In this document: one piece after another, positions 1,026 to 60,528 of the stretch | Layout of the letters: the number at the start of each line of letters is the position of its first letter | How positions within the stretch are numbered: position 1 is the first letter of the stretch | Source: an uncultured Candidatus Saccharibacteria bacterium | GTDB taxonomy: Bacteria; Patescibacteriota; Minisyncoccia; Phycocordibacterales; DATDWN01 | Assembly: GCA_964597675.1 (NCBI GenBank) | Contig: CAZQYV010000002.1 | Span: forward strand, 7,532-71,531 | Length of the DNA stretch: 64,000 bases | Direction: 5' to 3' | Notes under the pieces: model-generated | Databases searched by the model: none | The model's input: only the letters and a program-made list of their open reading frames with translations | What the model was told of the DNA's origin: nothing | Program-made: the position numbers and the translations under genes

Positions 1026-3299
1026 ATGAATACACGAACAAAAAAATTTTTCGGCATCTACCTACCAATTATTCTTATTATCGTAACTATTTTTGTTGCA
1101 AGTTTCTTTTTTCAAAAAGTCGATACGGTTGAGGCGGGTTGGTATAACACTGGTGGTACATGGGGGTACCGTAAGGGGATTACTATTGATCACACCAAAG
1201 TTGGAGTTGGTACAACAACACCATTATTAAATTTTCCAATGCTATTTTCTGTAACAGACTCAGATCTAAAATTCACAGGTAGTGGAGGAAAGGTAGCATC
1301 ATCAACTGGGCTAGATATATTATTCACATCATCTGATGGAACAACAAAACTAGATTATGAAATGGAAAGTTATTCCAGTACAACAGGACAAGTTATAGCA
1401 TGGGTTCGTATTCCATCATTATCACCATCAGTTGATACTACTATATATGTATATTTTGGTAATGCCAGTGCAACTGATCAATCAAATAAGACGGGCGTGT
1501 GGGATTCAAGTTATAAAGGTGTGTGGCATTTGCCTGACGGTACAACTTTAACGGCAAATGATTCCACCAGTAACGCCAACAATGGGACTATAGTTGGAGC
1601 AACTGTTGCCACTGGTAAAATTGATGGTTCTGCAAATTTTGATGGAGTAGATGATTGGATCATAAGTTCAAATACTGTAAATACTGGAGTATCTACCGTT
1701 TCTACATGGGTTAAATTAAATGCTATTCCATCAGGGGATTCGTTAATAACTGGTTTTGTTCAAGGAAATGGTAGTACCGTATACGATAAGGATATTAAAA
1801 TTGACTCTGGGGGTTTAGTTAGATTTTATGTATATGGTTCTGGAACTCAGAACACCACCCCTACATCAGCACTGACAACAGGAGTATGGTATTACCTTGT
1901 AGGTACACAGGATGGGACTAATTCTTATATCTATCGTAATGGTGTACAGGAGGGTTCAGCTACAGTTGGAACTAGTTATACTAGTTATTCAAGTCCAAAT
2001 TTTTTAATTGGAGGTCGTTCATATGGATTAGGTCACACTAATCAAGTTTTGGATGAGGTTAGGTTTTCAAATATTGCACGTTCGGCGGATTGGATTGCCA
2101 CAGAGTATAATAACCAATCAAGCCCAAACACTTTTTATGTGTATGGGTCAATTGTTTTGTCAAGCCGTCCGCCAGACATCGCTGGTGTTGCTGTTAAAAA
2201 TCAGGTTACCACAGCACCAGGTTGGTACTCGACTGGTGGTCCTTGGTTATATAGAAAACAAATCACAGTTGATCATTCAAAAGTTTCAACAACAACATCA
2301 CTCACAGATTTTCCTATGCTTTTTTCTGTCACAGATATGGATTTAAAATATGTTGGTAATGGAGGGAAGATTGCTAGTTCGACTGGGGGTGACATTGTCT
2401 TTACATCTTCTGATGGGATAACTAAACTTTCTCATGAAATAGAAAAGTATTCATCAACCACGGGAGAGACAGTGGTATGGGTTAAAATCCCTACATTGTC
2501 CGGCGTGTCGGATACTATTATATATGTGTACTTTGGAAATGGTGAGGCAAGTAACCAACAAGACCCAGCGAACGTATGGGATAGTAACTATAAAGGGGTA
2601 TATCATTTGAAAGATGGGACAACACTCAACTATAGTGATAGTACTAGCAATGCAAAAAATGGTACTGTCGGGGGAGGGTCTTTTAATCCTACTGCAACAA
2701 CAGGGAAAGTAGATGGGGCAGCATCTTTTGATAACAATAGTTATCAATACATCTCTTTGCCAGGTAGTACGTTTGGTTCCGGTAGTGTGACAGTTGAGTT
2801 GTGGACAAAATTTACAACCTTTACAGGTTACTGGCCGATGTTTTCCGCTTATACTAATGATAGTAATTCAATAGAAATATTTGTTAATAATAATACTAAT
2901 TTATTTGGCGGTAATTATAACAACGCTGCAATTACTGGTGGAACGTTGGTGACTAATAAATGGTATCACGTTGTGTTAACCGCCGTTTCTGGGGGGGTTA
3001 CCCAATTCTATATAGACGGAGAACTCAGTGGAACGACCGGCACCACAAATTTTAGTACTTATACTGTAGCTCCATATATCGGTCGTCGTGCTGGTTATTA
3101 CTACAATAATATTATTGATGAAGTTAGACTGTCCTCGGGTATTGCCAGATCACCATATTGGATTAGGACGACATACAACAACCAATCATCACCAAATACT
3201 TTTTATGCCTATGGAAAATTGGAAAGTTCTAGCAGGGTAAATTCGTCCGGCGCTTCTGCTCCGACAGTAAAAACAAGGGGTGGAGTTAAGTTTCGTTAA
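1026..3299 (+). CDS. membrane-anchored surface protein with two tandem DUF2341 + LamG/ConA-like lectin modules
   Basis: N-terminal TM helix; two ~340 aa internal repeats (GWYNTGGTWGYRKGITIDHTKV... / GWYSTGGPWLYRKQITVDHSKV...) each followed by jelly-roll-like segment (DEVRFSNIARSADWI / DEVRLSSGIARSPYWI). Confidence 0.6.
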   Translation: MNTRTKKFFGIYLPIILIIVTIFVASFFFQKVDTVEAGWYNTGGTWGYRKGITIDHTKVGVGTTTPLLNFPMLFSVTDSDLKFTGSGGKVASSTGLDILFTSSDGTTKLDYEMESYSSTTGQVIAWVRIPSLSPSVDTTIYVYFGNASATDQSNKTGVWDSSYKGVWHLPDGTTLTANDSTSNANNGTIVGATVATGKIDGSANFDGVDDWIISSNTVNTGVSTVSTWVKLNAIPSGDSLITGFVQGNGSTVYDKDIKIDSGGLVRFYVYGSGTQNTTPTSALTTGVWYYLVGTQDGTNSYIYRNGVQEGSATVGTSYTSYSSPNFLIGGRSYGLGHTNQVLDEVRFSNIARSADWIATEYNNQSSPNTFYVYGSIVLSSRPPDIAGVAVKNQVTTAPGWYSTGGPWLYRKQITVDHSKVSTTTSLTDFPMLFSVTDMDLKYVGNGGKIASSTGGDIVFTSSDGITKLSHEIEKYSSTTGETVVWVKIPTLSGVSDTIIYVYFGNGEASNQQDPANVWDSNYKGVYHLKDGTTLNYSDSTSNAKNGTVGGGSFNPTATTGKVDGAASFDNNSYQYISLPGSTFGSGSVTVELWTKFTTFTGYWPMFSAYTNDSNSIEIFVNNNTNLFGGNYNNAAITGGTLVTNKWYHVVLTAVSGGVTQFYIDGELSGTTGTTNFSTYTVAPYIGRRAGYYYNNIIDEVRLSSGIARSPYWIRTTYNNQSSPNTFYAYGKLESSSRVNSSGASAPTVKTRGGVKFR

Positions 3300-16134: not shown

Positions 16135-19100
16135 ATGAACAAAACAATCACCAATTCAACTAAATATGTAGGAGCATTCATTGCATTTTTGCTTATGATA
16201 GCTGCTCCGATAGGTATTTTGTTTGCTGATTCTACACTCTCAAACGAAATAGTTCAGGACCCTTCTGGTATTGGAGGTGAATCTGCTGTGTGCGGAAAGA
16301 CATCTACATGGTGGTTTAGAAATGGTGCCTCACAATTTAATCTATATCGTAATACACTCAATACTGCTGCCGGCGCACAAAAAATTCTTTCAAATGTCTC
16401 TTACACAGACCCAACATATGGCGGATATATTGATACTGTTCCAGCAGGAACATATTTTTATTGGGTAGAAAATGTTGGTGGCATAAATAAAGTTCCATCA
16501 TTCAACAATAGTACTGGAGGTATTGCAGTCAGCGCCTGTTTAAATAAACCACAAATAAGTATTATTGGTGATCGAATTGTAAATGTTCAGGTTGGAGGTA
16601 CTTACACAGATCTCGGAGCCACAGCAACAGATGCAGAGGATGGAAATATAACATCACAGATCGTAAAGACTGGGACAGTCAATACTGCGGTCGTTGGTAC
16701 ATATAAAATTTCATATTCAGTAACAGATACTACAGGATTGACTACATCAGTTTCTAGACGAGTTGTTGTTTCTGTAAACATGTGTGCACTTGATATCTGT
16801 GCGGGAGGAAATGGCCAACCAGCAATAAATCCTCCAACTTCATTTTCTGATGTGCCACAGTCTAACCCTCACTGGTCAGATGTAAACGAGGCATCATCAC
16901 TATGTCTTATGATTGGTTATGGTAATGATATTTTCGGTGTAGATACTGATTTGACACGTGGTGAGGTTACTAATGTGTTGACACGTATGCTTCATTGGGA
17001 TATTTCATCATCAAGTTCACCAACAGTTTCTATCTTTAGTGATGTGCCACTTGATCGATACAATAGATCTTCAATAGAAATGGCATACCAAAAAGGTATG
17101 GTAGATTCATGTGGTACAAATCCACTTCAGTTTTGTCCAGATGGAGCTACTACTCGCGGTAAATTAGCGATGTCCTTGACCAAGGCACTCGGTCTTTCCG
17201 TTACATCTGCTCCTGCGGCACCGTATTACACGGATGTTTCTTCAAACGACACGTATTTCCCATACATACAGCTTATGACTCAGCATGGCATCATGGGCTC
17301 ATGTCCAACTGGCGCATCTAATACATTTTGTCCTACATCTACTATAAAACGAGGAGATGCGGCACTGTATTTTGTAAAAGCATACGAATATCTTTTAAAT
17401 CATGACAATTCTTGTGTCATTCCAGTCAACACCCCACCAACTATCACTCTCGTGGGTAGTAACCCACTATCATGGACAGTCGGTACACCATTTACTGATC
17501 CAGGAGCCACAGCAACAGATGCAGAAGATGGAAATCTAACATCACATATTGTTTCAACAAGTACAGTCAATGCAAACATTGTCGGTACATACACAATCAT
17601 CTACTCTGTCACAGACAGTGGTGGACTCTCTGCTACAACAACACGTACAGTGAATGTGGTGGCGAAAATAAATACATATTGTCCAGATGGTTTGCCGATG
17701 ACATATGAAAAATTTGCAGAGGCGCGAAATGCTGGTTTAGTTAATTATGCTATTGAAATAAGTTCAACAACTAGTCGTGCAACTGTTCAAGTTACAAATC
17801 AGACAGGTTGTCAGATACCAATGAGTCTTTCGGTATATAAGATGTACGATGGAGTTTTGTCTAATCAGGTACTATTCGATGGGGATGGTGTTACAAATGC
17901 AACATCATCAACAGCATTTAAAGCAAATGTACCTCGATGTATGGCACAGGTTGATTTTTGGTATGGCCAATATCCGACAACACTTCTAGATTCAAATCCA
18001 TATGGTAATCCACCACCACCAGTAGTGCTTGCATGGTCAATACATAATCCAACAGGTCAGTATTGTTCTGACGCAATCCCAAACACTCCACCAACTATCA
18101 CTCTCGTGGGTAGTAACCCACTATCATGGACAGTCGGTACACCATTTACTGATCCAGGAGCCACAGCAACAGATGCAGAAGATGGAAATCTAACATCACA
18201 TATTGTTTCAACAAGTACAGTCAATGCAAACATTGTTGGTACATACTCAATCATCTACTCTGTCACAGACAGTGGTGGACTCTCTGCTACAACAACCAGA
18301 ACGGTCAATGTGGTTGCGAAGCCATACGAAGATCTACCTCCAGTACTAACAGTCATAGGTGCTAATCCAGCAAATATAAATGTCGGTGAGTCATATAATG
18401 ATCCTGGAGCAACTGCTTTGGACAAGGAAGACGGTGATATCACTGCTCAGATCGTCGCAACAAGTACTGTAAACACTTCAGTCGCAGGAACATACACTGT
18501 GACTTATCGAGTGACAGATTCTAAAGGACACACTGTATATGCATCAAGGACAGTAATCGTTTCTCCAGTGGTCCAACCACAAAAAGGGACGATAACGATA
18601 TGTTTGCTTGTTGCAGATACAAATAATTCACTAGCGACATCATCTCTAAACGTACCGCAGGGGACTATCGGTCTCTCTGTATTTGGTGCATCAACAACAA
18701 CCCCGATTCAGTCAAAGATGTGGAATACCAGTGCATTTGCTCCAAACCAAAAAATTATTTTGACAGCAAATGATGCTGATTGTGTTACATATAGTAATCT
18801 TGATATTCGATCATATATATACACACAGGCCACAACAACAGGCGTACAATGGAATCAGCCAAAATATAATAGTCAGGAGACACAACCGGTAAACAATGTG
18901 TTCGACTTCTTTACATTCTCAACTTCAACGGTTAATGCAAACGGTGTGATTAATCTCACAACAGAGCGACCAAACCGAACACTTGTATTATATGCGACAT
19001 ATAACCCTGCACCGCAGTGTATGATTCCAGTTATCACATCTGCACTTTCTGCCACTGGAACAGTAGGACAGTCATTTACTTACACAATCACTGCAACATC

Positions 19101-34504: not shown

Positions 34505-35110
34505 TTATTGACCAATATGATTGCCGGGATAAATGGAAATTTTTGTAAAAGGAAAGAGTCGAACAAGCGGTGTGCCGATAATATATTTTCGTGGCAAGAT
34601 ACCCCATGAGCGGGAATCATAACTGACTGGGCGGTTGTCCCCAAGAACAAAGTATTCATCAGCGCCAAGGGTGACTGACATACTGGCAGGTGCGGTGTAG
34701 GTCAGAAATGACTCATCTAGACGGATGCCTTCAGGGTGCTCTGTATTGACAATCGTAACATTTGTGCCATTGAGCACCACAGTCTCTCCTGGGAGCCCTA
34801 CAATGCGTTTGATGAGGTTTTTACCCTCTTCTCCCTTGATGGGGAGGGGGAACTCAAAAATCACTACCTGACCTCGCTGGGGCTCTCCCATCCGATAGCC
34901 AATTTTGTTAACTACGAGATAGTCGCCTGTCTCAAATGTCGGATCCATAGAGCTTCCAGAGACGAGGTATGGCTCTGCAACATACATACGAAAAGGGAGA
35001 ACAACACCAACAGCAATAACCGCAAAGATCAAAACTTCACGAATAATTGTTTTCCAGAGCGGTTTTTTTGGCGGAAACTCTGCTGTAATAGGTGCTTGTT
35101 CTTCATTCAT
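34505..35110 (-). CDS. lepB: signal peptidase I
   Basis: SGSSMDPT, VLGDNRPVSYDSRSWG. Confidence 0.85.
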   Translation of the reverse strand: MNEEQAPITAEFPPKKPLWKTIIREVLIFAVIAVGVVLPFRMYVAEPYLVSGSSMDPTFETGDYLVVNKIGYRMGEPQRGQVVIFEFPLPIKGEEGKNLIKRIVGLPGETVVLNGTNVTIVNTEHPEGIRLDESFLTYTAPASMSVTLGADEYFVLGDNRPVSYDSRSWGILPRKYIIGTPLVRLFPFTKISIYPGNHIGQ

Positions 35111-42270: not shown

Positions 42271-42343
42271 CTCTATGTCGGCGATAAATAGATTTCCACC
42301 ATTTCTATTTCCTAGTTTAGTTTTTTCATACTATAATATAAGT

Positions 42344-42871
42344 ATGTTTTCTGATCCTCAAAAAAATATCGAACAGTGTGGAATACAAGCAGGTATGGAA
42401 ATTGCTGATTTTGGTTCTGGATCCGGGCATTATACTATTGCAGCTGCCAAGGCGCTTGTTTCTACCGGACACGTCTACGCTATTGATGCTCAAAAGGATC
42501 TCCTAACAAAACTGAAAAATCACGTTACCCGTGATGGCCTCTACAATATAGAGGTTGTTTGGGGTGATATTGAAAAAGTAGGCGGAACACATCTTCATGA
42601 TGGTATGATCGATCTGGTTTTATTGTCCAACATTCTTTTTCAAGTCGAAAATAAGCAAGGGGTTTTGGAAGAAGTAAAACGAATATTAAAACCGGCTGGC
42701 CGAGTGCTAGTTGTCGATTGGTCAGAATCATTTGGTGGCATTGGTCCGCACGCGGATATGGTGGTCAAAAAAGACACAGTTATGGATTTGTTTGAACACA
42801 ACGGCTTTCACTTGGATCGAGAAATTTCGGCAGGGTCACACCACTATGGCATGATTTACAAAAAATTATGA
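42344..42871 (+). CDS. class I SAM-dependent methyltransferase
   Basis: EIADFGSGSGHYT motif I; ORF track start 42275, Met after TATAAT chosen. Confidence 0.65.
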   Translation: MFSDPQKNIEQCGIQAGMEIADFGSGSGHYTIAAAKALVSTGHVYAIDAQKDLLTKLKNHVTRDGLYNIEVVWGDIEKVGGTHLHDGMIDLVLLSNILFQVENKQGVLEEVKRILKPAGRVLVVDWSESFGGIGPHADMVVKKDTVMDLFEHNGFHLDREISAGSHHYGMIYKKL

Positions 42872-44151
42872 CAAATTTCAAAATTGCTATTGTAACGATT
42901 TTTACGCTTGGACTAGTTATTGGTATTGCTATTTTTGCCTTATCCAAGGCAAACAGTACACCGGTGGCACAGGTTGTGGTCTGGGGAACAATACCAGACG
43001 ATGCATTTTCTGTCGCATACAAAAATTCGACACTTCCAAAAAATAAATCTGTTTCAGTCCGATATGTTCGCAAGGATAAAGCAGATTTCGATGCAGATTT
43101 CGTCGAGGCATTGGCCTCTGGCACTGGACCAGACGTGGTTATATTGCGAGAAGACTCTATGTTCAAGCATCGTAACAAGTTTTTGATGATTCCGTACAAG
43201 AGTTATCCAGAGCGCAATTTTAAAGACACATTTATCGAAGGTGGTGAGATTTTTTTGAGTACCGATGGTATACAGGCCTTGCCTCTTATGATTGATCCGA
43301 TGGTTATGTATTGGAATCGAGACATGTTTACAACCAACCTTATTTCACAGCCACCACAGTATTGGGATGATGTGTTGCGTTTGGTACCTACACTGACACG
43401 CAAGGACAAAAGCGGAAATATTATGCAAAGCATGCTCTCTTTTGGTGAATGGCGAAATGTAGCAAATGCAAAGGAAATTCTGGCAACACTTTTGTTGCAA
43501 GGAGGTACGCCAATCATTTCATACAACAAGTCCTACTATACATCTGTACTTGATTCACAACTCAATTACCCAATTGCTCCCGGACAGTCTGCACTTAATT
43601 TTTATACTCAATTTTCCAATCCAACCGCTGCTATGTACACATGGAATCGCTCCTTACCTTCATCACTCAACTTTTTCCTATCCGGCAACTTGGCCACATA
43701 TTTTGGTTTTGCTAGCGAGTTGTTTTCAATCCAACAGAAAAATCCAAACCTCAATTTCGACGTGACATACATGCCACAGGCACGTCAGGCAACCAAGAAA
43801 ATCGTCTTTGCTCATATGTACGGACTGGCCATAACAAAGCAATCCAAGTCCATTGCAGGGGCATTTGCGACCATTTTGGGCTTGACTGAGCCATCGTCAC
43901 TTACTGCTCTCGAGACCATGACCAACCTGCCTCCTGTCCGTCGGGATCTGCTTGCTGCAAAGCCGACTGATGCATACCGAACCGTTTTCTATAATTCTGC
44001 GTTGTATGGCAAAGCATGGACCGATCCAGACCCACAAGCGACGTCAGAAATTTTCAAAGAAATGGTAGAGTCTGTAACAAGTGGTCGTGCGCGCGTGACA
44101 GAGGCACTCGGACGTGCGAGTCAATTGTTAAGTACGTTTTTAACACAATAA
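42868..44151 (+). CDS. membrane-anchored extracellular solute-binding-protein-like protein (SBP family 1 fold), orphan
   Basis: N-terminal TM; ASGTGPDVVIL, LMIDPMVMYWNRDMF blocks. Confidence 0.45.
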   Translation: MTNFKIAIVTIFTLGLVIGIAIFALSKANSTPVAQVVVWGTIPDDAFSVAYKNSTLPKNKSVSVRYVRKDKADFDADFVEALASGTGPDVVILREDSMFKHRNKFLMIPYKSYPERNFKDTFIEGGEIFLSTDGIQALPLMIDPMVMYWNRDMFTTNLISQPPQYWDDVLRLVPTLTRKDKSGNIMQSMLSFGEWRNVANAKEILATLLLQGGTPIISYNKSYYTSVLDSQLNYPIAPGQSALNFYTQFSNPTAAMYTWNRSLPSSLNFFLSGNLATYFGFASELFSIQQKNPNLNFDVTYMPQARQATKKIVFAHMYGLAITKQSKSIAGAFATILGLTEPSSLTALETMTNLPPVRRDLLAAKPTDAYRTVFYNSALYGKAWTDPDPQATSEIFKEMVESVTSGRARVTEALGRASQLLSTFLTQ

Positions 44152-44152
44152 T

Positions 44153-44599
44153 ATGATGAAACGAATCATGCGATATGTTGGGGTTACATTATTTATTTTT
44201 TTATTATTGGGTAGTTTTGCATCAGCACAAATAAATGATAATAATACAACATCAAGTACTATGTCAGATGGACCTCATACAAATGGTATCGTGACAACAT
44301 GTTGGAAAGGGGGGAAACCAATACCATGTGAGAAATTTAGTGATCTAATTATTGCAATACAAAATACAATCAATTTTGGAGTGAAATTTGCATTAGCATT
44401 TTCTGTAGTGCCGATTGCTATTGCCGGCTTTCTATACCTTCGATCGGGGGATAATCCGGGAGACAGAACAAAAGCAAACAATATGCTAAAAAATGTTGCA
44501 ATTGGTATTGTGGTCATGCTTGCGGCATGGCTTATAGTCAACTTGATTACAAATTCATTAGTTACAGATGAGGTTAAAAAAGGATTCTTTCCAATTTAA
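44153..44599 (+). CDS. VirB2/TrbC-like pilin paralog A (signal peptide, Cys pair, two hydrophobic helices)
   Basis: signal peptide ...SFASAQ; AQINDNNTT; helix-GDNPG loop-helix. Confidence 0.5.
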   Translation: MMKRIMRYVGVTLFIFLLLGSFASAQINDNNTTSSTMSDGPHTNGIVTTCWKGGKPIPCEKFSDLIIAIQNTINFGVKFALAFSVVPIAIAGFLYLRSGDNPGDRTKANNMLKNVAIGIVVMLAAWLIVNLITNSLVTDEVKKGFFPI

Positions 44600-44610
44600 T
44601 TTAACATTTT

Positions 44611-45012
44611 ATGAAGAAAATAATTATATTCAGTGTACTGCTCATATCTATAATGTTTCCGCTGTTTTCATATGCGCAGATAAATGATAACAATACAACA
44701 AATACAGGCACTAGTATTAATTTGAAAATACCCAATCCTCTCAAGTGTAATACAACAGACAACAGCAAATGTACCTTATTCGATCTTATTGCAACAATTC
44801 TCAATAAAATAGTTATGCCGATTATGGGTGTACTCGTTGTACTCTACATTATTTATGCAGGGTTTAAATACGTCCAAGCCCAAGGCAATCCAGCAGCAAT
44901 TTCAAAAGCAAATGATAATCTAAAATATGCACTGATAGGAGCAGGTATTCTTTTGGCTGCAGCAGGCATATCGCAGGTCGTTCAAAACACTGTTACTAAA
45001 CTTCTTGAATAA
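44611..45012 (+). CDS. VirB2/TrbC-like pilin paralog B
   Basis: SYAQINDNNTT shared with A; helix-QGNP loop-helix. Confidence 0.5.
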   Translation: MKKIIIFSVLLISIMFPLFSYAQINDNNTTNTGTSINLKIPNPLKCNTTDNSKCTLFDLIATILNKIVMPIMGVLVVLYIIYAGFKYVQAQGNPAAISKANDNLKYALIGAGILLAAAGISQVVQNTVTKLLE

Positions 45013-45418
45013 TATGTCACGCACCTCACGAATCATTATCACATCAATTTTTATACTGCCAATGGTAGTATATGGTCTTGAATTCAATCTATCCGCTTCG
45101 ACTTTTGCTGGCATTATTACGTATGTACTAAGTATACTCAATCTCCTTATCCCAATTCTCGTTGCGCTTGCTCTTATATTTTTCTTTTGGGGGTTATCCA
45201 GATTTGTTATTAGCGCCGGCAATGAATCCGAGTTAAAAAAAGGCAAAAACTATATGATGTGGGGGATTTTGGCACTTTTCATACTCTTTTCATACAGCGC
45301 GATCATTTCGATTTTTGCAAAAGATTTGGAGATTGGCGACACATCATCGTATCCATTTTTACCAGAAGGAGATGGTAGTAGTAACAGTCAAAAACCCGGT
45401 TTTCCTAGTTTAAATTAA
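45005..45418 (+). CDS. VirB2/TrbC-like pilin paralog C
   Basis: FFFWG...GNE...MWGILALFILFSY. Confidence 0.5.
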   Translation: MNNMSRTSRIIITSIFILPMVVYGLEFNLSASTFAGIITYVLSILNLLIPILVALALIFFFWGLSRFVISAGNESELKKGKNYMMWGILALFILFSYSAIISIFAKDLEIGDTSSYPFLPEGDGSSNSQKPGFPSLN

Positions 45419-45423
45419 TTAAT

Positions 45424-45843
45424 ATGAAAAAATATACATTATATACTTTATATGCGTCAGCTGTATTTCCACTCATTTCATTTGCAGCACTCGATGGAGT
45501 TCGTGGGTTTCTGACAAGTGCAAAAAGTCTCATTAATTTGTTACTTGGTGTTGTTTTTGGTCTTGCTGTACTTTTCTTTTTCTGGGGAATTGCACAATTT
45601 ATTCTCAATGATTCCGGTAACGAAAAGACGCGAGCAGAAGGGAAGACAAAGATAGTTTGGGGTATTATCGCATTGTTTATTATGGTTTCTATATACGGAA
45701 TCTTGGCTATGATTGGAGGATTACTTGGTGTCGAGACACGAGTTACACCAGGAAGTGGCACGGGTAGTAGCAGTGGTGGTGACAGTGCAGGCATTCCACC
45801 GCCTGCATTTACAACAGATTGTAACAGTCCAGAAGGGTGTTAG
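45424..45843 (+). CDS. VirB2/TrbC-like pilin paralog D (Gly/Ser-rich C-tail)
   Basis: FFFWG...GNE...IVWGIIALFIMVSIYG. Confidence 0.5.
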   Translation: MKKYTLYTLYASAVFPLISFAALDGVRGFLTSAKSLINLLLGVVFGLAVLFFFWGIAQFILNDSGNEKTRAEGKTKIVWGIIALFIMVSIYGILAMIGGLLGVETRVTPGSGTGSSSGGDSAGIPPPAFTTDCNSPEGC

Positions 45844-45926
45844 TATATCCACACCCTCTTTGCTTCAAAGCATTTTTATAGTATGATTTATGTATAGCAT
45901 TAATTTATAAGTAATTTAGTAACACA

Positions 45927-46280
45927 ATGAAAAAAGTTATTTACACAGCGTTATCTTTTGGTCCAGTACTCGCTCTTGCACAGACTGCTCCAAACCTTAG
46001 TGGTATTTCATCATTGATTACCAGTATCGGCAATATTATCAAGCAGTTGATACCTATATTTTTTGCAATCGCTATTGTCTATTTCTTCTGGGGACTTGTA
46101 CAGTACATACGTGCTGCAGGAGATCCAAAAGCTGCAGAACAAGGAAAGAGTCATATGATTTGGGGTTTGATTGCTCTCTTTATTATGGTATCAGTATACG
46201 GATTGATCGGTTGGATTGGTGGCGCACTTGGTGTAAATCAGGGCGGTACAGTTAACCTACCGACAGTTAATATTCAATAG
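45927..46280 (+). CDS. VirB2/TrbC-like pilin paralog E
   Basis: signal ALAQTA; YFFWG...GDP...MIWGLIALFIMVSVYG. Confidence 0.5.
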   Translation: MKKVIYTALSFGPVLALAQTAPNLSGISSLITSIGNIIKQLIPIFFAIAIVYFFWGLVQYIRAAGDPKAAEQGKSHMIWGLIALFIMVSVYGLIGWIGGALGVNQGGTVNLPTVNIQ

Positions 46281-46284
46281 GGTA

Positions 46285-46563
46285 ATGACCATCATTCCTT
46301 TTCTCAACAAATTTAATCGGCTGATTTTAAACCCACTGATTATCTTGTTGTTCACACTTGCGACCGTTTACTTTATTTACGGCATTGTTAAGTTTCTTTC
46401 TCTACAAGAAGGGGACCCTGCACGTAAAGAAGCAAAGAATGCGCTTCTGTGGGGGATGTTTGGAATGCTAATCATGTTTTCTGTTTACGGTCTTATCCGC
46501 TTTGTCCTCGCTACGTTCGGAGTATCAGGCGACCCGACAGGATACATATTTCCTAACGGTTAA
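46285..46563 (+). CDS. VirB2/TrbC-like pilin paralog F
   Basis: YFIYG...GDP...LLWGMFGMLIMFSVYG. Confidence 0.5.
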   Translation: MTIIPFLNKFNRLILNPLIILLFTLATVYFIYGIVKFLSLQEGDPARKEAKNALLWGMFGMLIMFSVYGLIRFVLATFGVSGDPTGYIFPNG

Positions 46564-46571
46564 ACAAAAAA

Positions 46572-46634
46572 CACTCTGCCTCGGCAGGGTGTTTTTGTAA
46601 CAAAAATCGCGGGGCCCATATGAGCCCCGCGAGG
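46572..46634. terminator. two convergent hairpin terminators (pilin array / transglycosylase)
   Basis: acactctgcc-tcgg-cagggtgttttt ; cgcggggc-ccatatga-gccccgcg. Confidence 0.6.
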
Positions 46635-46647
46635 GTGTGGAGTGACT

Positions 46648-47745
46648 TCACTCCAAAGAACACAAAATAGTGACGGTTTTCTTATCTGGTGATTGGAATC
46701 GCTTGGTTATGATTCCACCACCAAGATTTAATGGGGTCCCAGGAACGTATATCTCTTCCCACTCACCATTGACCAGAACCTTTACAGAAGTGTCTGGATC
46801 TGGTCTACATGTCATACTTCTGTCTTGCGGAGTGATGACGACATCACCCCACTTCCCGACAGGTGCCTCGACAATCCATGACTCCCGGAACTTTCGCTGA
46901 GTCCATGGAGCGAGACCGTACCGTGTTCGGAGGTGCAGCGCAGCTTGGAGGTTACCCTCGATGGTCGTAATATCCATCTGCGTCAGATCGATATCGAGGG
47001 CTTTTTGTTGGATGACCTCCTTGGCCCACCAGCCCTCGTTGATCTGCATGACGCCGACATCATCCTTGGCGCCATTTTGGTTGTGGTTTCTCACAACCGT
47101 TCCATCGTCGTTCCTCTGGTTACATCCAGATTCGTTTCTACAGATTATCACCATCTCTTCGACGGTGATATTGGGATGAGGATGACCATCCCAGAATTTC
47201 CTCACTGCCTCCGTGTCTTTTCCCTCTGCTTCCTTGGGTCGTAAGAGGGTAGGGTGCCAATTGCTTGGCAGAGGGGTGGCGTAGCGTGTCGGGCGGATAG
47301 TTTCTTTGACAATTGTTATTCCCTCATCACCACTAATCGTGTGGTAAAGAGATCTACCAACTGCAAATAGTCCAAGTGCGCAGAGAATTATCCCAATCTT
47401 TGATAGATATCCCTTTTGAGTACAGAGATAGAACCCAAGACCGAGAATGATCTGATACAACATGAACCATGGCTGTGACCACCACCTCACCCAGAACTCC
47501 GGGAACATCATCCACACAATCAAATGTATGGAGAAGATTCCAGCGAAGAGGAGTAGAAAGTTTTTCCATGCGTTCCACTTCTTTTTTATCCACTCCCTGG
47601 ATGCGGTTGGAGCAAGTGAGGTTTGTTGTCCGTTTTGCTGTCGTGGTTTCCTGATAAGCTTGTACCAAGCAACCACAAGTAGCAGTATAGTCGCACCAAC
47701 TGGTGCAACAATAAAGAGATAAAGCAGAATCGTTTTTATGTCCAC
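46648..47745 (-). CDS. membrane-anchored lytic transglycosylase (SLT domain; VirB1-like)
   Basis: N-terminal TM helices; NESGCN...VGVMQINEGW catalytic-Glu block. Confidence 0.6.
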   Translation of the reverse strand: MDIKTILLYLFIVAPVGATILLLVVAWYKLIRKPRQQNGQQTSLAPTASREWIKKKWNAWKNFLLLFAGIFSIHLIVWMMFPEFWVRWWSQPWFMLYQIILGLGFYLCTQKGYLSKIGIILCALGLFAVGRSLYHTISGDEGITIVKETIRPTRYATPLPSNWHPTLLRPKEAEGKDTEAVRKFWDGHPHPNITVEEMVIICRNESGCNQRNDDGTVVRNHNQNGAKDDVGVMQINEGWWAKEVIQQKALDIDLTQMDITTIEGNLQAALHLRTRYGLAPWTQRKFRESWIVEAPVGKWGDVVITPQDRSMTCRPDPDTSVKVLVNGEWEEIYVPGTPLNLGGGIITKRFQSPDKKTVTILCSLE

Positions 47746-49140
47746 CTACTCCTCCTTGTCAACACCAATCTGTACGCCACTACCACCGGCGACAAAAGTG
47801 CGCAATTTGCCGATTGCCTCGGCATCCTGCGAGTCCTTAATCGTCTCTTTTGCCATTGCGGCTGCGTCAGCAGCTGGAACGCCTTGTGTTGTATACATCT
47901 CAACCAACTCCTCGAACCGTTTCCGGTTGGCTTTGGCTAGACGCTCTGTGGCCTGTGCTTGCCCTTCAGCTCGAGTGATTGTGGCACGTTTTTCTCCATC
48001 TGCGGTGACTACAGCTGCTTCAGCGGTCTCCTTTGCGCTGACACGTTTTTCCATGATTGTCTGGATGGAGGAGTTAAGTTCCGGGTCACTCATGGTGAGT
48101 TGGATAAGATCTACACCGAGAATATCTAGTTCATGGTTGAATTTATCTAACTCAGCTTTTTCAAAGTCCTTCCCGGTTTCTTTATATTCCTCCCACGTTT
48201 TTGTTACCAATCGTTTTGACAGAAATCCTCCAATCAACTCACTCAGTGTCTGGAGGAAGTTGTCTTTATAGACGGTGAATGCCAGATTCGGGTCAAAGAC
48301 GCTGACGATCGCGTAGCTGATCACGCTGAATCTGACACCATCCTTAGTATCAAGGTCCTGGTGTAAAGTCGGTCGGTAGATCCGTCTATACAAGCCATAC
48401 CGCTTTACCACACTACCGACCAATTGCCCCATAATAGAGGTATTCTTGGAGGTCTGACTGTCGACATTTACCACACGGTCGATAAACAGTGGGCGTAGAG
48501 AACTGATGAGTGGTGGGCCAAAGCGACGCATACCAAACTTTTCCCTGATTTTTTTATAAAACAAGGTTTCATTTTCATATGGATTGGCTGCGTCATCGAT
48601 CCTTTTCGTGGCAGTGTTATATGTTGCATTAGGTAAGATGTATTCGACAATTGGTCCATTTTTTTCATCCCACCCAGTTACAACCGCACGAATGACATTA
48701 GGTGTGTCGGGAATAAATCCCAAAATTTGCCATATATTTTTCGGATCGTCACCCGAGTTTTCAGGTGGTTTGACCAGAAGTACCGCTAGGGTTGCCAGCA
48801 GTATTGCAAACGTCATCATGGCTGATATTACGCCAAGCATCGCCAACAACACAGTCGTGCCGTAGTTCATAAACAAAAGTACGACAAGCGAGATGATGAT
48901 TAGTACGACGACCACCAGAAGGATAGTGGGTAATAGGTTGACTATCACCGACACCCAAAGGTTGAGGGCGACGCTCCATGAGGTTGATTTTTTTTCTGGC
49001 TCATGGCTTACATTTTCCTCATATGGTATGAGGGAGAGATCATCCTCTTCCTTCTTTTTACCAGGACGGTAATAAAAGAAGAGCAACCCCATTGCAAGGG
49101 CAATCACAACCACTGCAATTAAAGACACAATTCCAAGCAT
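47746..49140 (-). CDS. SPFH/band-7 domain membrane protein
   Basis: C-terminal RVSAKETAEAAVVTADGEKRATITRAEGQAQA...GGSGVQIG; N-terminal TM region. Confidence 0.6.
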   Translation of the reverse strand: MLGIVSLIAVVVIALAMGLLFFYYRPGKKKEEDDLSLIPYEENVSHEPEKKSTSWSVALNLWVSVIVNLLPTILLVVVVLIIISLVVLLFMNYGTTVLLAMLGVISAMMTFAILLATLAVLLVKPPENSGDDPKNIWQILGFIPDTPNVIRAVVTGWDEKNGPIVEYILPNATYNTATKRIDDAANPYENETLFYKKIREKFGMRRFGPPLISSLRPLFIDRVVNVDSQTSKNTSIMGQLVGSVVKRYGLYRRIYRPTLHQDLDTKDGVRFSVISYAIVSVFDPNLAFTVYKDNFLQTLSELIGGFLSKRLVTKTWEEYKETGKDFEKAELDKFNHELDILGVDLIQLTMSDPELNSSIQTIMEKRVSAKETAEAAVVTADGEKRATITRAEGQAQATERLAKANRKRFEELVEMYTTQGVPAADAAAMAKETIKDSQDAEAIGKLRTFVAGGSGVQIGVDKEE

Positions 49141-49315: not shown

Positions 49316-49702
49316 ATGAAAAAAGATTTTCAGGAATGGCACAAAAGTAAAAGTGATATAGATGAACATAAAATACGTGCGTTTTTTCATGAACGAGAAA
49401 TTTGGTTTACGTCACTTGGTCTTAATGTTGGTTTTGAACAAGATGGAAGGGGAGATAAATTCTTGCGCCCTATAATTATATTGAAAAAATTTAATAATGA
49501 GGTGCTGTGGTGTATTCCACTCACTAAAAATCATAAAAAAGGAAAATATTACTTCTCCTTTCATCTTGAAGATAAAATTAGTACAGCAATTCTTTCCCAA
49601 ATTAGATTAGTTGATGCAAAACGCTTACAATACAAAATTGGTGATATTAGCGAAGAAAATTTTGATGAGTTAAAACAAAAACTCATACAATTGCTTGCAT
49701 GA
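49316..49702 (+). CDS. PemK/MazF-family toxin-like protein (mRNA interferase fold)
   Basis: RPIIILKKFNNEVLWCIPLTKN motif; no obvious antitoxin partner. Confidence 0.5.
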   Translation: MKKDFQEWHKSKSDIDEHKIRAFFHEREIWFTSLGLNVGFEQDGRGDKFLRPIIILKKFNNEVLWCIPLTKNHKKGKYYFSFHLEDKISTAILSQIRLVDAKRLQYKIGDISEENFDELKQKLIQLLA

Positions 49703-49951: not shown

Positions 49952-50034
49952 GTGGGCGAGAGAGGACTTGAACCTCCACGGATTACTCCACCAGTTCCTA
50001 AGACTGGCGCGTTTACCAATTACGCCACTCGCCC
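49952..50034 (-). tRNA. tRNA-Leu (anticodon TAG)
   Basis: rc: GGGCGAG...CCAGT-ctTAGga-ACTGG, long variable arm, GGAGG-TTCAAGT-CCTCT, CTCGCCC-A. Confidence 0.85.
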
Positions 50035-50134
50035 AATACGTACACTCTACTGTATTTTGAGAAAAAAATAAAGAAGGCTGATATATAGCACTATTCCGCT
50101 TGTTTTGCAGTATCTTTGTGTCTTGGATATTTCG

Positions 50135-50260
50135 CTCGTCGTCACTCGCGAAATTCCTCCGACCCAGACCTCGCTGGTTTTGCCTACTGGCAAAACATAG
50201 CTCCGGTCTGCACATGTACGAGAAAGCCCCATGCAGATGGGGCTTTCTCGTACATGTGCA
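50135..50260 (-). repeat. tRNA-Lys downstream variant module: 23-bp perfect hairpin (50209-50260, overlaps last 4 nt of tRNA) and GAGTGACGACGAG box (rc at 50135-50147)
   Basis: tgcacatgtacgagaaagcccca-tgcaga-tggggctttctcgtacatgtgca. Confidence 0.7.
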
Positions 50261-50329
50261 CCCAGCAGGGATCGAACCTGCGACATTCTCCTTAAGAGGG
50301 AGCTACTCTACCAGCTGAGTTATGGGTGC
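50257..50329 (-). tRNA. tRNA-Lys (anticodon CTT)
   Basis: rc: GCACCCA-TA-ACTC-AGCTGGTA-GAGT-A-GCTCC-ctCTTaa-GGAGA-ATGTC-GCAGG-TTCGATC-CCTGC-TGGGTGC-A. Confidence 0.85.
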
Positions 50330-50392
50330 AAACTATTTCAAACAAATTTACAGTAACATAAAATGATATTTTTTAAAAATATAATTTTATTT

Positions 50393-50565
50393 GTGCCCGA
50401 GGTGGAAATCTTCCGCGATTCAAAACTCGCCGTCGCTCATTTTGGTCGTGTCCGCGACTCGCGACCAGTCGTGCTCGACTGGTACCCGCTCCGTCTTTCG
50501 ATTCCCAACGTAAAGTCGTAACACGACTTTACTCTCGTGCTCAAAAACTATATACATAGTTTTTG
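50393..50565 (-). repeat. tRNA-Leu(TAA) downstream module: inverted T-arm copy, 9-bp hairpin (50464-50485), GAGCGACGGCGAG box (rc 50426-50438), degenerate direct copy of tRNA 3' end (50393-50410)
   Basis: tgcccgaggtggaaatc vs tRNA tgcccggagtgggaatc. Confidence 0.6.
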
Positions 50566-50647
50566 TGCCCGGAGTGGGAATCGAACCCACATCCCTTGCG
50601 AGACACGATTTTAAGTCGTGCGCGTATACCAATTCCGCCATCCGGGC
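50566..50647 (-). tRNA. tRNA-Leu (anticodon TAA)
   Basis: rc: GCCCGGA...CACGA-ctTAAaa-TCGTG, long variable arm, GTGGG-TTCGATT-CCCAC, TCCGGGC-A. Confidence 0.85.
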
Positions 50648-50709
50648 AATATAATTATAAAAAACATTCCGTCGGTTCAATTCCGCTAGAAAAAGCGCTG
50701 CTTTTTCTG

Positions 50710-50781
50710 AGGCCTGGGGCGGAATTGAACCGCCGTATATTCCTTTTGCAGAGGAATGCCTTACCACTTGGCTACCAGGCC
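50710..50781 (-). tRNA. tRNA-Cys (anticodon GCA)
   Basis: rc: GGCCTGG-TA-GCCA-AGTGGTAA-GGCA-T-TCCTC-tGCAaaa... GGCGG-TTCAATT-CCGCC-CCAGGCC-T; downstream hairpin + inverted T-arm copy (50664-50709). Confidence 0.8.
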
Positions 50782-54550: not shown

Positions 54551-55690
54551 TCAATTGATTGTATCATACTTTATAATTTTACTCTTATTGGTATCACTTT
54601 GCTTTGACACAAGTGTTATTCGTTTAATCTCATTTTTTCCGACTGCAATCACTGAATCAATATTGTGAATAAAGGATAAATTACGTGGCAATCTTGTTTT
54701 AGTGACTAGTTTTGTTTCTGTTTCTCGTAATTTTGAAATAATCATTTCAGCATCTTCATTCCCAACATATCCTTCAGATATACCGATGTTTATCTCTTCC
54801 TCAAGGATTTTGAGATATTTCTTTAATAGCCATGCCTTTTGTTTATTATTCAAATCATCCAATCCAAGCCGACTTAAAAACAAATCAGGATTAAATCCTG
54901 CAGGATCGGTACACAGATCTTCCAGCACTTCGAGTACCTCGCTGATATTTCCAGTCATGTGCTCAATTGGTATTCCCTCCGCTAGTCCATATAGATATTC
55001 ACTTTCAAGATCCTCTATACCCATAACAGCAGAATCAATCCATTCTCGATGAGTTTTCGTAATTTCTTCCTGCTCATATTCTGGTGGTATGCTTGATTTA
55101 ATCTGAATGAGACTCATGGTTTCAATTGATTCATCCTCACCGTATATCATCTCAACCAGATCAATCTTGTAGTGTGCATCTAGCCCAGTTTCAAAATAAA
55201 AATCATAGGATTGTGCTGGTGACAGGTTTAAAATTGCTTTTCTGCCACGTATGAAATTCACAACACTTTTAATTCCGTTTGATCTAATGTCAATTTCACC
55301 ACGAGTTATTTTTTCAAATTGTTTTGGGGTGACATCAATTGCACCTCTCCTACTCATAATATATTTTTTGAAACCAGTATTAAACTGTCTCACGATACTA
55401 TCTATTTCATCATCAGATAAATTTTCAGCGTATTCAACAAATAGATTCTCGATATGAGCGAAACCACTCACATTACCATTTTCCTTTTTTTTCAGGGCAA
55501 TGAGTAGATTTTCATACATTGCGGCATTTCCCACAAGCTCATTTTGTGCCTCAGCAAGTGCTTCATTTCGGTTTATCTTGTCATGTGGTTTTGACACATC
55601 GAGCATATCAAGTCTTCTTTCACTATGATCTGGAATATTCTGTGCATTTGGCTTTGATTCGATGGTATATATGTGTGGAGGTCTTTCCAT
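54551..55690 (-). CDS. hypothetical protein (no recognisable domain)
   Basis: long acidic ORF; start taken at Met31 (TATATAAT upstream) to avoid overlap with divergent gene. Confidence 0.45.
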   Translation of the reverse strand: MERPPHIYTIESKPNAQNIPDHSERRLDMLDVSKPHDKINRNEALAEAQNELVGNAAMYENLLIALKKKENGNVSGFAHIENLFVEYAENLSDDEIDSIVRQFNTGFKKYIMSRRGAIDVTPKQFEKITRGEIDIRSNGIKSVVNFIRGRKAILNLSPAQSYDFYFETGLDAHYKIDLVEMIYGEDESIETMSLIQIKSSIPPEYEQEEITKTHREWIDSAVMGIEDLESEYLYGLAEGIPIEHMTGNISEVLEVLEDLCTDPAGFNPDLFLSRLGLDDLNNKQKAWLLKKYLKILEEEINIGISEGYVGNEDAEMIISKLRETETKLVTKTRLPRNLSFIHNIDSVIAVGKNEIKRITLVSKQSDTNKSKIIKYDTIN

Positions 55691-55756
55691 AATTTGTATT
55701 ATATAAAATATAACAGGATATTTACTCTCTAATCTGATGGTGATATTATACAGTGT

Positions 55757-56575
55757 ATGGAGGACCTCAACAAGAACCAAATTATATTACTGACATTATT
55801 GGTTAGTTTTGTTACATCTATTGCCACAGGCATCATGACAGTCTCTTTGCTCCAGCAGGCACCTATCGAGGTGACTCGAAACATAAATCGTGTTGTGGAA
55901 AAGACAATTGAAAAAGTCACTCCAGCAGATATTTTGGGTCCAAAAAATACAGAAGTTACGACGGTAGTGGTCAAGGAAGAGGATTTGGTTATTGATGCCA
56001 TAAACAAAAATGTTAAAAGTATTGTACGTATAAAGGAACGTGATGGATTAGGTGAAACTACATTTTATGGAATGGGACTTGTCGTTTCAAAAGATGGCTT
56101 GGTAATTGCCGACCGGCAGACAATTCATACAGACAGTGCTTACTTTGTTGTTATAGATGGAGTTGATGTTTATATCAATCCAGTCGGAGTGGACAAAAAA
56201 ACAGATTTCCTTTTGTTTAAGGCAGCACCTGCAAAAGATAAAAAATTTGATTTTGTTCCGGCTACTTTTGCTGGAGTGGATCCAAAATTAGGTCAGTCTG
56301 TCGTGGCACTTGGTGGCGATGCTTCCAACGCAGTGGCGGTCGGGCGAGTCATTTCATTTTCTATGCGAGAGTCTGGTACTGGATCAACTACAGTAAAATA
56401 TGTATCAGGCATTGATACCGATATTGTCAGTCGTGATTTGGTAGCAGGTAGCCCTATTTTTACATTAGCAGGGGATATTGTTGGCATGCACACATCAGGT
56501 GGGTCTGGGAAAATATTCACATCATCCCAGCTTCTAAAGAAGGATTTAGCGACTCTTTCAGAGCTCATTAAATAG
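55757..56575 (+). CDS. membrane-anchored trypsin-like serine peptidase (S1/HtrA-like core, no PDZ)
   Basis: N-terminal TM; GSPIFTLAGDIVGMHTSGGSG catalytic-Ser region. Confidence 0.55.
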   Translation: MEDLNKNQIILLTLLVSFVTSIATGIMTVSLLQQAPIEVTRNINRVVEKTIEKVTPADILGPKNTEVTTVVVKEEDLVIDAINKNVKSIVRIKERDGLGETTFYGMGLVVSKDGLVIADRQTIHTDSAYFVVIDGVDVYINPVGVDKKTDFLLFKAAPAKDKKFDFVPATFAGVDPKLGQSVVALGGDASNAVAVGRVISFSMRESGTGSTTVKYVSGIDTDIVSRDLVAGSPIFTLAGDIVGMHTSGGSGKIFTSSQLLKKDLATLSELIK

Positions 56576-60018: not shown

Positions 60019-60528
60019 ATGCATAGATTAAATAGAGGGTTTACATTGATCGAGCTTCTTGTTGTTATATCAATAATTTCACTTTTATCTTCAGTTGTAC
60101 TGTCTAGTGTCAATGCTGCAAAAATAAAAGCTCGTGATACATTACGAAAACAACAAATGGTCCAACTTCGGACTGCGCTTGAAATGTATTATGGTGATAA
60201 TGCATCATACCCTTTGCCATATGGTGGTGCCTGGGCAGGGTATGCAGGGACCGGTTGTAATGGAGTGCAAGGCGGTATTACAGGTGCAACTGGATACATA
60301 ATTAACCTCGCACCGACGTATATCGGAACCCTCCCGATCGATCCTAGTAGGGGTACTGCCTGGTGTACTGGATATGTGTATTACTCTGATGGTGCCAATT
60401 ATAAACTTGTCTCACATATAGTCTACGAGGGCACATATCCAACTGTCGGGCAACCTTTTTATGACCCTGCACGGCCAACATGGGGGCTTATGGTTTGTAG
60501 TGGTGAGCCGGCATGTACTAATTGGTGA
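60019..60528 (+). CDS. type IV pilin (prepilin-type N-terminal cleavage/methylation domain)
   Basis: MHRLNRG|FTLIELLVVISII class III signal peptide. Confidence 0.85.
   Translation: MHRLNRGFTLIELLVVISIISLLSSVVLSSVNAAKIKARDTLRKQQMVQLRTALEMYYGDNASYPLPYGGAWAGYAGTGCNGVQGGITGATGYIINLAPTYIGTLPIDPSRGTAWCTGYVYYSDGANYKLVSHIVYEGTYPTVGQPFYDPARPTWGLMVCSGEPACTNW

Follow-up and report, generated by a model that had tools for sequence, protein, structure and literature searches.

A conserved six-gene array of predicted VirB2/TrbC-type pilins beside gyrA in Zambryskibacteria-like Paceibacteria

Six tandem pilin-like genes and their family

Patescibacteria, which are dependent on host cells, account for a large part of bacterial diversity. 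The stretch of DNA analysed here (the window) comprises 64,000 nucleotides of an uncultured bacterium deposited as Candidatus Saccharibacteria and placed by GTDB in the Patescibacteriota (Minisyncoccia; Phycocordibacterales; DATDWN01), corresponding to positions 7,532 to 71,531 of contig CAZQYV010000002.1 (GenBank assembly GCA_964597675.1, forward strand). It harbors an array of six small genes on the same strand, A to F, which encode predicted pilin-like proteins of the VirB2/TrbC superfamily, the pilins of type IV secretion systems (T4SSs), and which are followed by two convergent genes, G and H. All eight open reading frames (ORFs) were found where an earlier reading of the window by a model that saw only its letters and ORFs (the original prediction) had placed them, and the six consecutive small genes it described are real ORFs. 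On the plus strand, pilin A occupies 44153-44599 (148 aa), pilin B 44611-45012 (133 aa), pilin C 45014-45418 (134 aa), pilin D 45424-45843 (139 aa), pilin E 45927-46280 (117 aa) and pilin F 46285-46563 (92 aa). The longest ORF for C, of 137 aa, starts at a TTG at 45005; the ATG at 45014 is the start chosen by the gene callers in the near-identical contigs L005 and L007.

The array lies in one operon with an orphan solute-binding protein (SBP) gene and faces a convergent operon that encodes an SPFH protein and a lysozyme-like enzyme. The upstream operon begins, after gyrA, with the gene of a class I S-adenosylmethionine-dependent methyltransferase (42345-42871, plus strand; 175 aa from the ATG at 42345, with the longest ORF running from 42275), and a TATAAT box is present at 42331-42336, upstream of that ATG. 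The methyltransferase stop overlaps by 4 nt the start of the SBP gene (42868-44151, plus strand), whose 427-aa product is an orphan membrane-anchored solute-binding protein of the MalE/oligosaccharide-binding type. The SBP stop codon is in turn located 1 nt ahead of the pilin A start. Intergenic gaps within A to D measure 1-11 nt, the gap before E is 83 nt, and the E stop is separated from the F start by 4 nt. Directly after F, a GC-rich hairpin followed by a T run forms the intrinsic terminator of the pilin operon (46564-46598, plus strand), with a fold energy of -19.8 kcal/mol and a z-score of -6.5; none of 200 shuffles was equally stable. A second intrinsic terminator, on the minus strand (46607-46632; an 11-bp stem with 9 GC pairs, then a T run), ends the convergent operon of H (47746-49140, minus strand; 464 aa), an SPFH/Band_7 membrane protein, and G (46648-47745, minus strand; 365 aa), a lysozyme-like membrane protein. 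Because the H stop codon abuts the G start codon, G and H are taken to form one operon. GC content is uneven over these genes, at 34.5% for A and B, 47.9% for G and 46.3% for H, with 40.7% for the whole window; amino-acid composition, expression level and gene origin are candidate causes.

All six array proteins score at or above the gathering cut-off (26.6 bits) of the Pfam hidden Markov model PF18895 T4SS_pilin, which belongs to the VirB2/TrbC clan, with 42.2 bits for E, 38.9 for A, 37.0 for B, 35.2 for D, 29.5 for C and a marginal 26.8 for F. This result bears out the VirB2/TrbC pilin reading of the original prediction, as does a hydropathy scan, which recovered the predicted helix-loop-helix architecture in each of the six proteins as two hydrophobic segments around a charged G(D/N)(P/E) loop rich in basic residues. 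The best NCBIfam match of A to F is the Mbov_0395 "pilin-like conjugal transfer protein" model, with all six below its cut-off, and neither Pfam nor NCBIfam gave a holin or bacteriocin family match for any of them. The division into two subfamilies also proved correct: A and B have in common an AQINDNNTT motif, which follows the predicted cleavage site, and a cysteine pair ahead of the first helix, and C to F share an FFWG...WG..ALFIM.S.YG pattern. Pairwise identity is 36% between A and B, 27-40% within C to F and 15-24% across the groups (mean of all pairs, 24.9%), and profile-profile alignment with hhalign indicates that the two subfamilies are homologous (probability 97.5%, E-value 5e-12).

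The A/B type appears to be the nearer of the two subfamilies to classical VirB2/TrbC. A search with PF04956 (TrbC), suggested as a check of the pilin reading, gave a mixed result: precomputed PF04956 matches exist for 15 of 28 B homologs, but B itself reaches only an E-value of 0.069, under the cut-off. Some B homologs are labelled "VirB2 component (pilin)" by the Joint Genome Institute. Structure comparison, also suggested as a check, had a similarly divided outcome. The AlphaFold2 prediction for E, made from 64 homologs, shows a hairpin of two helices (25-62 and 67-101) with a mean predicted local distance difference test (pLDDT) score of 81.7, but Foldseek found no match to it in the PDB at an E-value of 0.001 or below; since a two-helix hairpin is too simple for a fold search to discriminate, no conclusion is drawn from this null result. 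With the E-type profile, the best solved match is the pKM101 pilin TraM (8cw4), only at an E-value of 0.064. Collectively, these comparisons support the assignment of the six proteins as predicted T4SS pilin-like members of the VirB2/TrbC superfamily.

Signal peptides and cleavage sites were judged by inspection. A to E begin with a hydrophobic stretch, after which comes a small-residue site, and F has no such stretch. A Sec signal with an AxA-type site had been claimed for all six proteins; such sites are clear in A, B and E, but the corresponding sites of D and C are FAA and VYG, and no signal peptide is apparent in F. In A, the predicted signal peptide (ASA, followed by Q) precedes an N-terminal extension with the cysteine pair and the two-helix hairpin. 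B, the other protein of the TrbC-like subfamily, has a predicted signal peptide (SYA, followed by Q), an IPNPL motif, the cysteine pair and a hairpin with IIYAGF..AQGNP. The remaining proteins are of the FFWG subfamily. C bears a C-terminal tail past its second helix, and D has a Gly/Ser-rich C-terminal tail ending in DCNxxxGC. All differences between D and its counterparts in near-identical strains, including an 8-residue indel, are located in this tail (window 45730-45843 compared with L005:4102-4497 and L006:2174-2569), while its terminal DCNxxxGC cysteine pair is kept. The confinement of strain differences to the region beyond the second helix suggests that the D tail is an exposed, fast-changing surface segment. 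E has the highest PF18895 score of the six, and F aligns with the mature part of E as a two-helix paralog that lacks a leader. Median identity to orthologs is 49% for E and F, 40-42% for A to D and about 25% for G. E is our candidate for the major subunit. A signal peptidase I gene (Peptidase_S26, E-value 1e-40) is located about 9 kb upstream of the array (34505-35110, minus strand) and likely encodes the generic processing enzyme for pilins A to E.

Conservation across species and a putative promoter ahead of E and F

A scan of one genome per GTDB species yielded 489 confirmed hits, of which the best 80 loci were analysed; the counts that follow use subsets of these. The metagenome-assembled genomes that contain homologs of E and B are assigned to Paceibacteria, Zambryskibacteria and "Parcubacteria", and the surroundings of these homologs show synteny with the window. 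The recurrent gene order, seen in about 80 species, is gyrA, the methyltransferase (not in all), SBP, A, B, two to five genes of the C/D/E type and F, followed by convergent G and H. Arrays contain 4-8 genes, with six the commonest number (40/72). The first gene is of the A type in 66 of 72 arrays, the second of the B type in 58 and the last of the F type in 65, and the middle genes vary in number. Genes in the last position are short (median 94 aa in 72 species), and 54 of the 72 first-position proteins have exactly two cysteines. The SBP gene is directly upstream of the array in 68 of the 71 loci with enough sequence, and the methyltransferase gene is upstream of SBP in 53 of 70 relatives. 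On the other side, a G-like gene is convergent and directly downstream of the array in 49/72 loci, and an H-like gene is present on the minus strand within 3 kb downstream in 54/59. The adjacency of SBP may partly reflect general synteny, as synteny in the clade extends over the entire gyrA-infB region.

The presence of the same array in about 80 species puts it well beyond chance, and the array appears to be an old, ordered kit under purifying selection. As the paralogs are ancient and their order is kept across species, they would have distinct, fixed roles. Two proposals made for the locus do not agree with this pattern. A remnant of a decaying apparatus is rejected, as about 80 species keep the entire locus with its ORFs intact. 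An expansion of paralogs for antigenic diversification fits poorly with ancient, order-fixed genes among which only the D tail varies between strains, and a recent expansion is rejected on the same grounds of age and kept order.

The one junction that departs from the tight spacing of the array is that ahead of the penultimate gene. Across species this gap has a median length of 99.5 nt, compared with 5-13 nt elsewhere in the array, and no other gap is as long in 51/72 arrays. It shows a shared layout, TTATCCACA - N5-6 - TTG - about 17 nt - TAtAAT, in which TTATCCACA is the DnaA-box consensus, a near-universal one on which the assignment of the site to DnaA rests. A perfect TTATCCACA on the coding strand, at fixed spacing to the -35 box, is found in the E-F gap (the gap ahead of E and F) of 30 of 72 species, and TTATCCACA with at most one mismatch in that of 45 of 72 (4 of them inverted). 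Perfect boxes on both strands number 58 in 1.25 Mb of loci, and 30 of these 58 fall within the 9.6 kb of E-F gaps. The corresponding putative internal promoter in the window, called from cross-species conservation, spans 45845-45887 on the plus strand and consists of a DnaA-box-like ATATCCACA (45845-45853; 8 of 9 positions match TTATCCACA), a -35 box TTGCTT (45860-45865) and a -10 box TATGAT (45882-45887). Taken alone, the ATATCCACA match in the window is not above chance, and its significance is comparative. When the region was scanned for promoter and terminator consensus sequences, hardly more promoter-like sites were found than in shuffled sequence (26 versus 18.8), and the call of an internal promoter rests on its conservation across species.

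These comparisons indicate that E and F have what appears to be a conserved promoter of their own. E and F would then form a separately controlled unit, possibly with DnaA as the controller. Separate control of this kind fits E, with or without F, as the abundant subunit, and A to D, which are co-transcribed with SBP, would then be minor or tip components. A more distant subclade (L028, L032, L046, L050, L060, L066, L067, L071) lacks the methyltransferase gene, and its E-F gap holds an element of the GGGGATAAC / GTGGATAAC type that looks like an inverted, degenerate box. This inverted form suggests that the site may work in either orientation.

The neighbouring methyltransferase, SBP, G and H proteins

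Orthologs of the methyltransferase are annotated as Methyltransf_11/25/31. Its link to the array is so far one of position. SBP matches PF13416 SBP_bac_8 (E-value 6e-14, 52.9 bits) and PF01547 (E-value 2e-10, 41.5 bits), and its nearest solved relative is 4r9f, "MBP1" (E-value 7e-9). No ABC permease or ATPase partner for SBP was found among the scanned ORFs of the window or in the annotated neighbourhoods of its orthologs. H matches PF01145 SPFH/Band_7 with an E-value of 6e-11 and 43.1 bits against a cut-off of 23.6, which agrees with the SPFH membrane protein that the original prediction had placed next to G.

G had been described as an SLT-domain protein equivalent to VirB1. It is a convergent membrane protein with the hallmarks of the lysozyme superfamily, but it gives no significant SLT match and its family profile favours C-type lysozymes. 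The lysozyme-like domain contains E205-S-G-C-N ... D229-V-G-V-M-Q-I-N-E-G-W-W. The outline of the protein, with some four membrane helices at the N terminus and a C-terminal domain rich in beta structure, comes from a low-confidence AlphaFold2 model, which was built on the window protein and one 78%-identical homolog and is, at a pLDDT of 44.6, unusable. Against Pfam, G gave no SLT match at an E-value of 1 or below, and its sole match was to C-type lysozyme PF00062 at 0.079; 2 of 22 positional orthologs reach SLT at an E-value of about 0.02. These 22 orthologs share the signature E-S-(G/N)-F-N-Q ... D-x-G-V-M-Q-I-N ... W ... E-G-N-L ... P-W, and the best solved matches of the family profile are C-type lysozymes (E-value 4e-4). 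In this alignment, E205-S206 and D229-...-N236 of G correspond to Glu35 and Asp52...Asn59 of the C-type lysozymes, and the Asp52-like residue is kept in 18/22 orthologs.

An exhaustive search of 1.84 billion representatives recovered 64 relatives of G, where a word-based search gave 2. Among these, a few short, distant relatives reach SLT or SLT_3 (P0142 matches SLT at 23.9 bits), and the link of G to SLT is only transitive, through such relatives. One relative of G weakly matches a holin family and one a bacteriocin family. G shares with both C-type lysozymes (glycoside hydrolase family 22, GH22) and SLT/VirB1 proteins (GH23) the E-S-x-x-N motif of the catalytic Glu and the D-x-G-(V/I)-(M/L/F)-Q-I-N...W motif. 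It differs from them in scoring under the curated cut-offs of both, in its approximately four N-terminal helices and extra beta-rich C-terminal domain and in its very fast evolution. Because the C-type profile is the best match and both the Glu35-like and Asp52-like residues are kept, the designation "lytic transglycosylase/VirB1" is not established for G, and the VirB1-like SLT reading finds support only in part. G is thus a member of the lysozyme superfamily, positioned somewhere between GH22 and GH23, and may be either a hydrolase or a lytic transglycosylase.

Relation to a T4SS and competing explanations

VirB2-like arrays in Patescibacteria, one of them of six genes, are already known (PMC10633639, PMC12102498, PMC12857230). 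In Southlakia epibionticum ML1 (Saccharimonadia), the six tandem PF18895 genes SEML1_0014-0019 are all essential by transposon sequencing (Tn-seq) and adjoin VirB4, PrgI/VirB3, VirB6-like and lysozyme genes (Wang et al. 2023 Cell, PMC10633639). The Southlakia array and the present one are alike in their six tandem, divergent PF18895 genes, some of which also match PF04956, and in the lysozyme-like gene nearby. However, the former is part of a T4SS cluster near the start of the gene numbering (SEML1_0006-0019), whereas the latter is located beside gyrA, after an orphan SBP gene and with no T4SS gene near; and whereas the Southlakia array is essential by Tn-seq, the present array is known from sequence alone. 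A search of 3,035 genomes with PF18895 and PF04956 (Quinonero-Coronel et al. 2025, PMC12102498) recovered 441 arrays, each with 2-11 pilin genes; their mean identity was 25%. Those tandem arrays, in VirB4-encoding, relaxase-poor genomes, resemble ours in family and in mean identity (24.9% here). That study differs in its focus on components near virB4 and found arrays to be most abundant in Microgenomatia and Saccharimonadia; a term search of its text gave no mention of the gyrA-SBP-array-lysozyme-SPFH locus of Zambryskibacteria-like Paceibacteria, of a fixed paralog order or of a DnaA-box promoter. A 2025 review points to the six-pilin array and a possible pilus in a monoderm (PMC12857230). 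The published accounts consulted make no mention of a link to an SBP gene, a locus beside gyrA, paralogs in fixed order, a last gene lacking a leader or an E-F promoter with TTATCCACA, and these details appear to be new.

Comparison with VirB2/TrbC/TraM of Gram-negative T4SSs (PF04956; pKM101 N-pilus, 8cw4) shows the same combination of a signal peptide (predicted in the present proteins), two hydrophobic helices and a short basic loop, in the same Pfam clan. In contrast to these systems, sequence similarity is marginal, the host is monoderm, VirB5 and VirB7-10 are absent, and there are six paralogs instead of one major pilin. The virB2 arrays of Bartonella and Anaplasma likewise contain several tandem divergent copies. 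However, the function presumed for those copies is antigenic or host-range variation (as summarised in PMC12102498), whereas the paralogs described here are ancient and fixed in position.

In the reading that we favour, to which we assign a probability of roughly 0.6, the locus encodes a heteromeric set of VirB2/TrbC-superfamily pilins for a chromosomal T4SS of the monoderm type that is encoded elsewhere in the genome. VirB4 is listed as present in 8 of the 11 array-bearing relatives that could be matched by name (Table S1, PMC12102498), including the closest named one, Zambryskibacteria RIFOXYD1_FULL_40_13, and the 3 VirB4-negative entries are small drafts of 444-603 kb (PMC12102498). The same work places virB4 near dnaA/dnaN in Paceibacteria (PMC12102498). 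In such a system, A to E would be exported by Sec and cut by signal peptidase, and F would be inserted without cleavage. Each of the six would lie in the membrane as a hairpin whose basic loop faces inward and whose two ends are on the outer side, and the N-terminal extension of A and B would be capable of forming a disulfide. A VirB4/VirB3/VirB6 machine would then extract the subunits and, where the bacterium meets its host cell, polymerise them into a heteromeric conduit resembling a pilus. The bulk of the filament would be supplied by E, possibly together with F, and A to D, perhaps with SBP, would be low-abundance or tip components. G would open the peptidoglycan for the structure, and DnaA binding at the E-F promoter would couple subunit supply to replication or growth state.

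Several observations weigh against this reading. No VirB4, VirB6, VirB3 or VirD4 gene was found among the ORFs of the 64-kb window scanned against Pfam, which agrees with the original prediction that further T4SS parts, if present, lie outside it. In addition, no relative has a VirB4-sized ORF with a Walker A motif within 10 kb on either side of the array, from which we conclude that the array is detached from virB4 in the clade. VirB4 is present in 2,417 of 3,035 Patescibacteria overall, or about 80% (PMC12102498), and the 8 of 11 found for array-bearing relatives is no higher than this phylum-wide value; the locus is thus compatible with a T4SS, and dependence on one is not demonstrated. The resemblance to experimentally proven pilins is weak (E-values of 0.06-0.07), and the hairpin fold search gave no significant match. 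No pilus has been seen in any Patescibacterium, a pilus being named as a possibility (PMC12857230). Finally, the roles proposed for SBP, G, H and DnaA are suggested by position and sequence motif only.

The strongest of the alternatives, though we consider it unlikely, retains the T4SS and dispenses with the extended pilus, such that the six proteins would form a short stalk, a channel lining or a translocon assembly platform in or just above the monoderm membrane. Gram-positive T4SSs normally lack pili (PMC12102498) and no filament has been observed; furthermore, F lacks a signal peptide, and six fixed, non-interchangeable paralogs suit a complex of defined stoichiometry better than a homopolymer. 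Yet the family is homologous to the filament-forming VirB2/TrbC proteins, a separate, near-consensus promoter for E and F suits high-copy subunits, and exposed tails differ between strains. Also improbable in our view, and ranked behind the pilus-less T4SS, is an envelope module that operates independently of any T4SS and has no need of VirB4, in which SBP, the six two-helix proteins, the lysozyme-like enzyme and an SPFH scaffold would serve, for example, in the capture or uptake of host glycans, with the VirB2-like proteins as its membrane or surface part. The 1-nt gap between SBP and the array and their adjacency in 68 of 71 species speak for such a module, as do the want of an ABC permease or ATPase partner for SBP among the scanned window ORFs, the oligosaccharide-binding type of SBP beside a glycan hydrolase-like neighbour, the finding that the array is never near virB4 in the clade (within 10 kb on either side) and the three array-bearing draft genomes listed without VirB4. 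But those three genomes are the small drafts of 444-603 kb, synteny from gyrA to infB may partly explain the adjacency, the module would encode no energy source, and the sole experimentally studied array of the family is part of a T4SS cluster.

A lysis or bacteriocin-type cassette, possibly prophage-derived, in which small secreted hydrophobic holin- or bacteriocin-like peptides accompany a muramidase, was also considered, given the tandem of small hydrophobic proteins beside a lysozyme-like gene and the weak holin-family and bacteriocin-family matches of one G relative each. We judge it very improbable. A to F match no holin or bacteriocin family, no phage genes are located nearby, and G is polytopic, on the opposite strand and in an operon with an SPFH gene. 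A holin/endolysin or bacteriocin cassette was rejected on the absence of a family match, the housekeeping-gene site and the conservation in about 80 species.

A bolder reading, which we regard as speculative and rank below both the pilus-less T4SS and the independent envelope module, would see in the gyrA-linked module, with its orphan oligosaccharide-type SBP, six ordered VirB2-like subunits, membrane-bound lysozyme-like enzyme and SPFH scaffold, an organelle that Zambryskibacteria-like Paceibacteria dedicate to the host interface. The muramidase would free glycans from the host cell wall, and a heteromeric filament or conduit of the VirB2 type, bearing SBP or acting together with it, would harvest them. 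The supply of E and F, as the main subunits, would be switched by DnaA according to replication or nutritional state. If true, a T4SS pilus would here have been turned to the acquisition of nutrients and placed under a new kind of regulation.

In the single patescibacterial species tested to date, both the T4SS and its pilin array proved essential. The locus adds a second large class in which the pilin set appears as a fixed, ordered and long-kept six-part kit, uncoupled on the chromosome from virB4 and linked to genes for a sugar-binding protein, a muramidase-like enzyme and an SPFH protein. These findings refine the recently published picture and do not overturn current views. The leads they raise are which paralog is the major subunit, whether SBP is a structural part and whether DnaA controls the E-F promoter.

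Other genes of the window are recorded here as separate observations. Right after the SPFH gene, at 49316-49702 on the plus strand, is a gene for a PemK/MazF-type toxin (E-value 2e-10; 30% GC), for which no antitoxin gene was recognised; in the two relatives with annotated neighbourhoods (L001, L003), the conserved locus does not include this toxin gene. Between this MazF-like gene and rbfA-infB is a cluster of four tRNA genes (49952-50781, minus strand), Leu-TAG, Lys-CTT, Leu-TAA and Cys-GCA. No Pfam match was obtained for ORFs of 409 aa (54551-55780, minus strand) and 327 aa (32-1015, plus strand). Two large surface proteins are encoded on the plus strand, one of 1,610 aa (16135-20967) with SLH, five bacterial Ig-like, He_PIG and peptidoglycan-binding domains and one of 757 aa (1026-3299) of the LamG/DUF2341 type; both are possible host-adhesion factors. 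A type IV pilus (T4P) pilin-like protein with the N-terminal methylation motif PF07963 (E-value 1.5e-8) is encoded at 60019-60528 on the plus strand and belongs to a pilus system distinct from the VirB2-like array.

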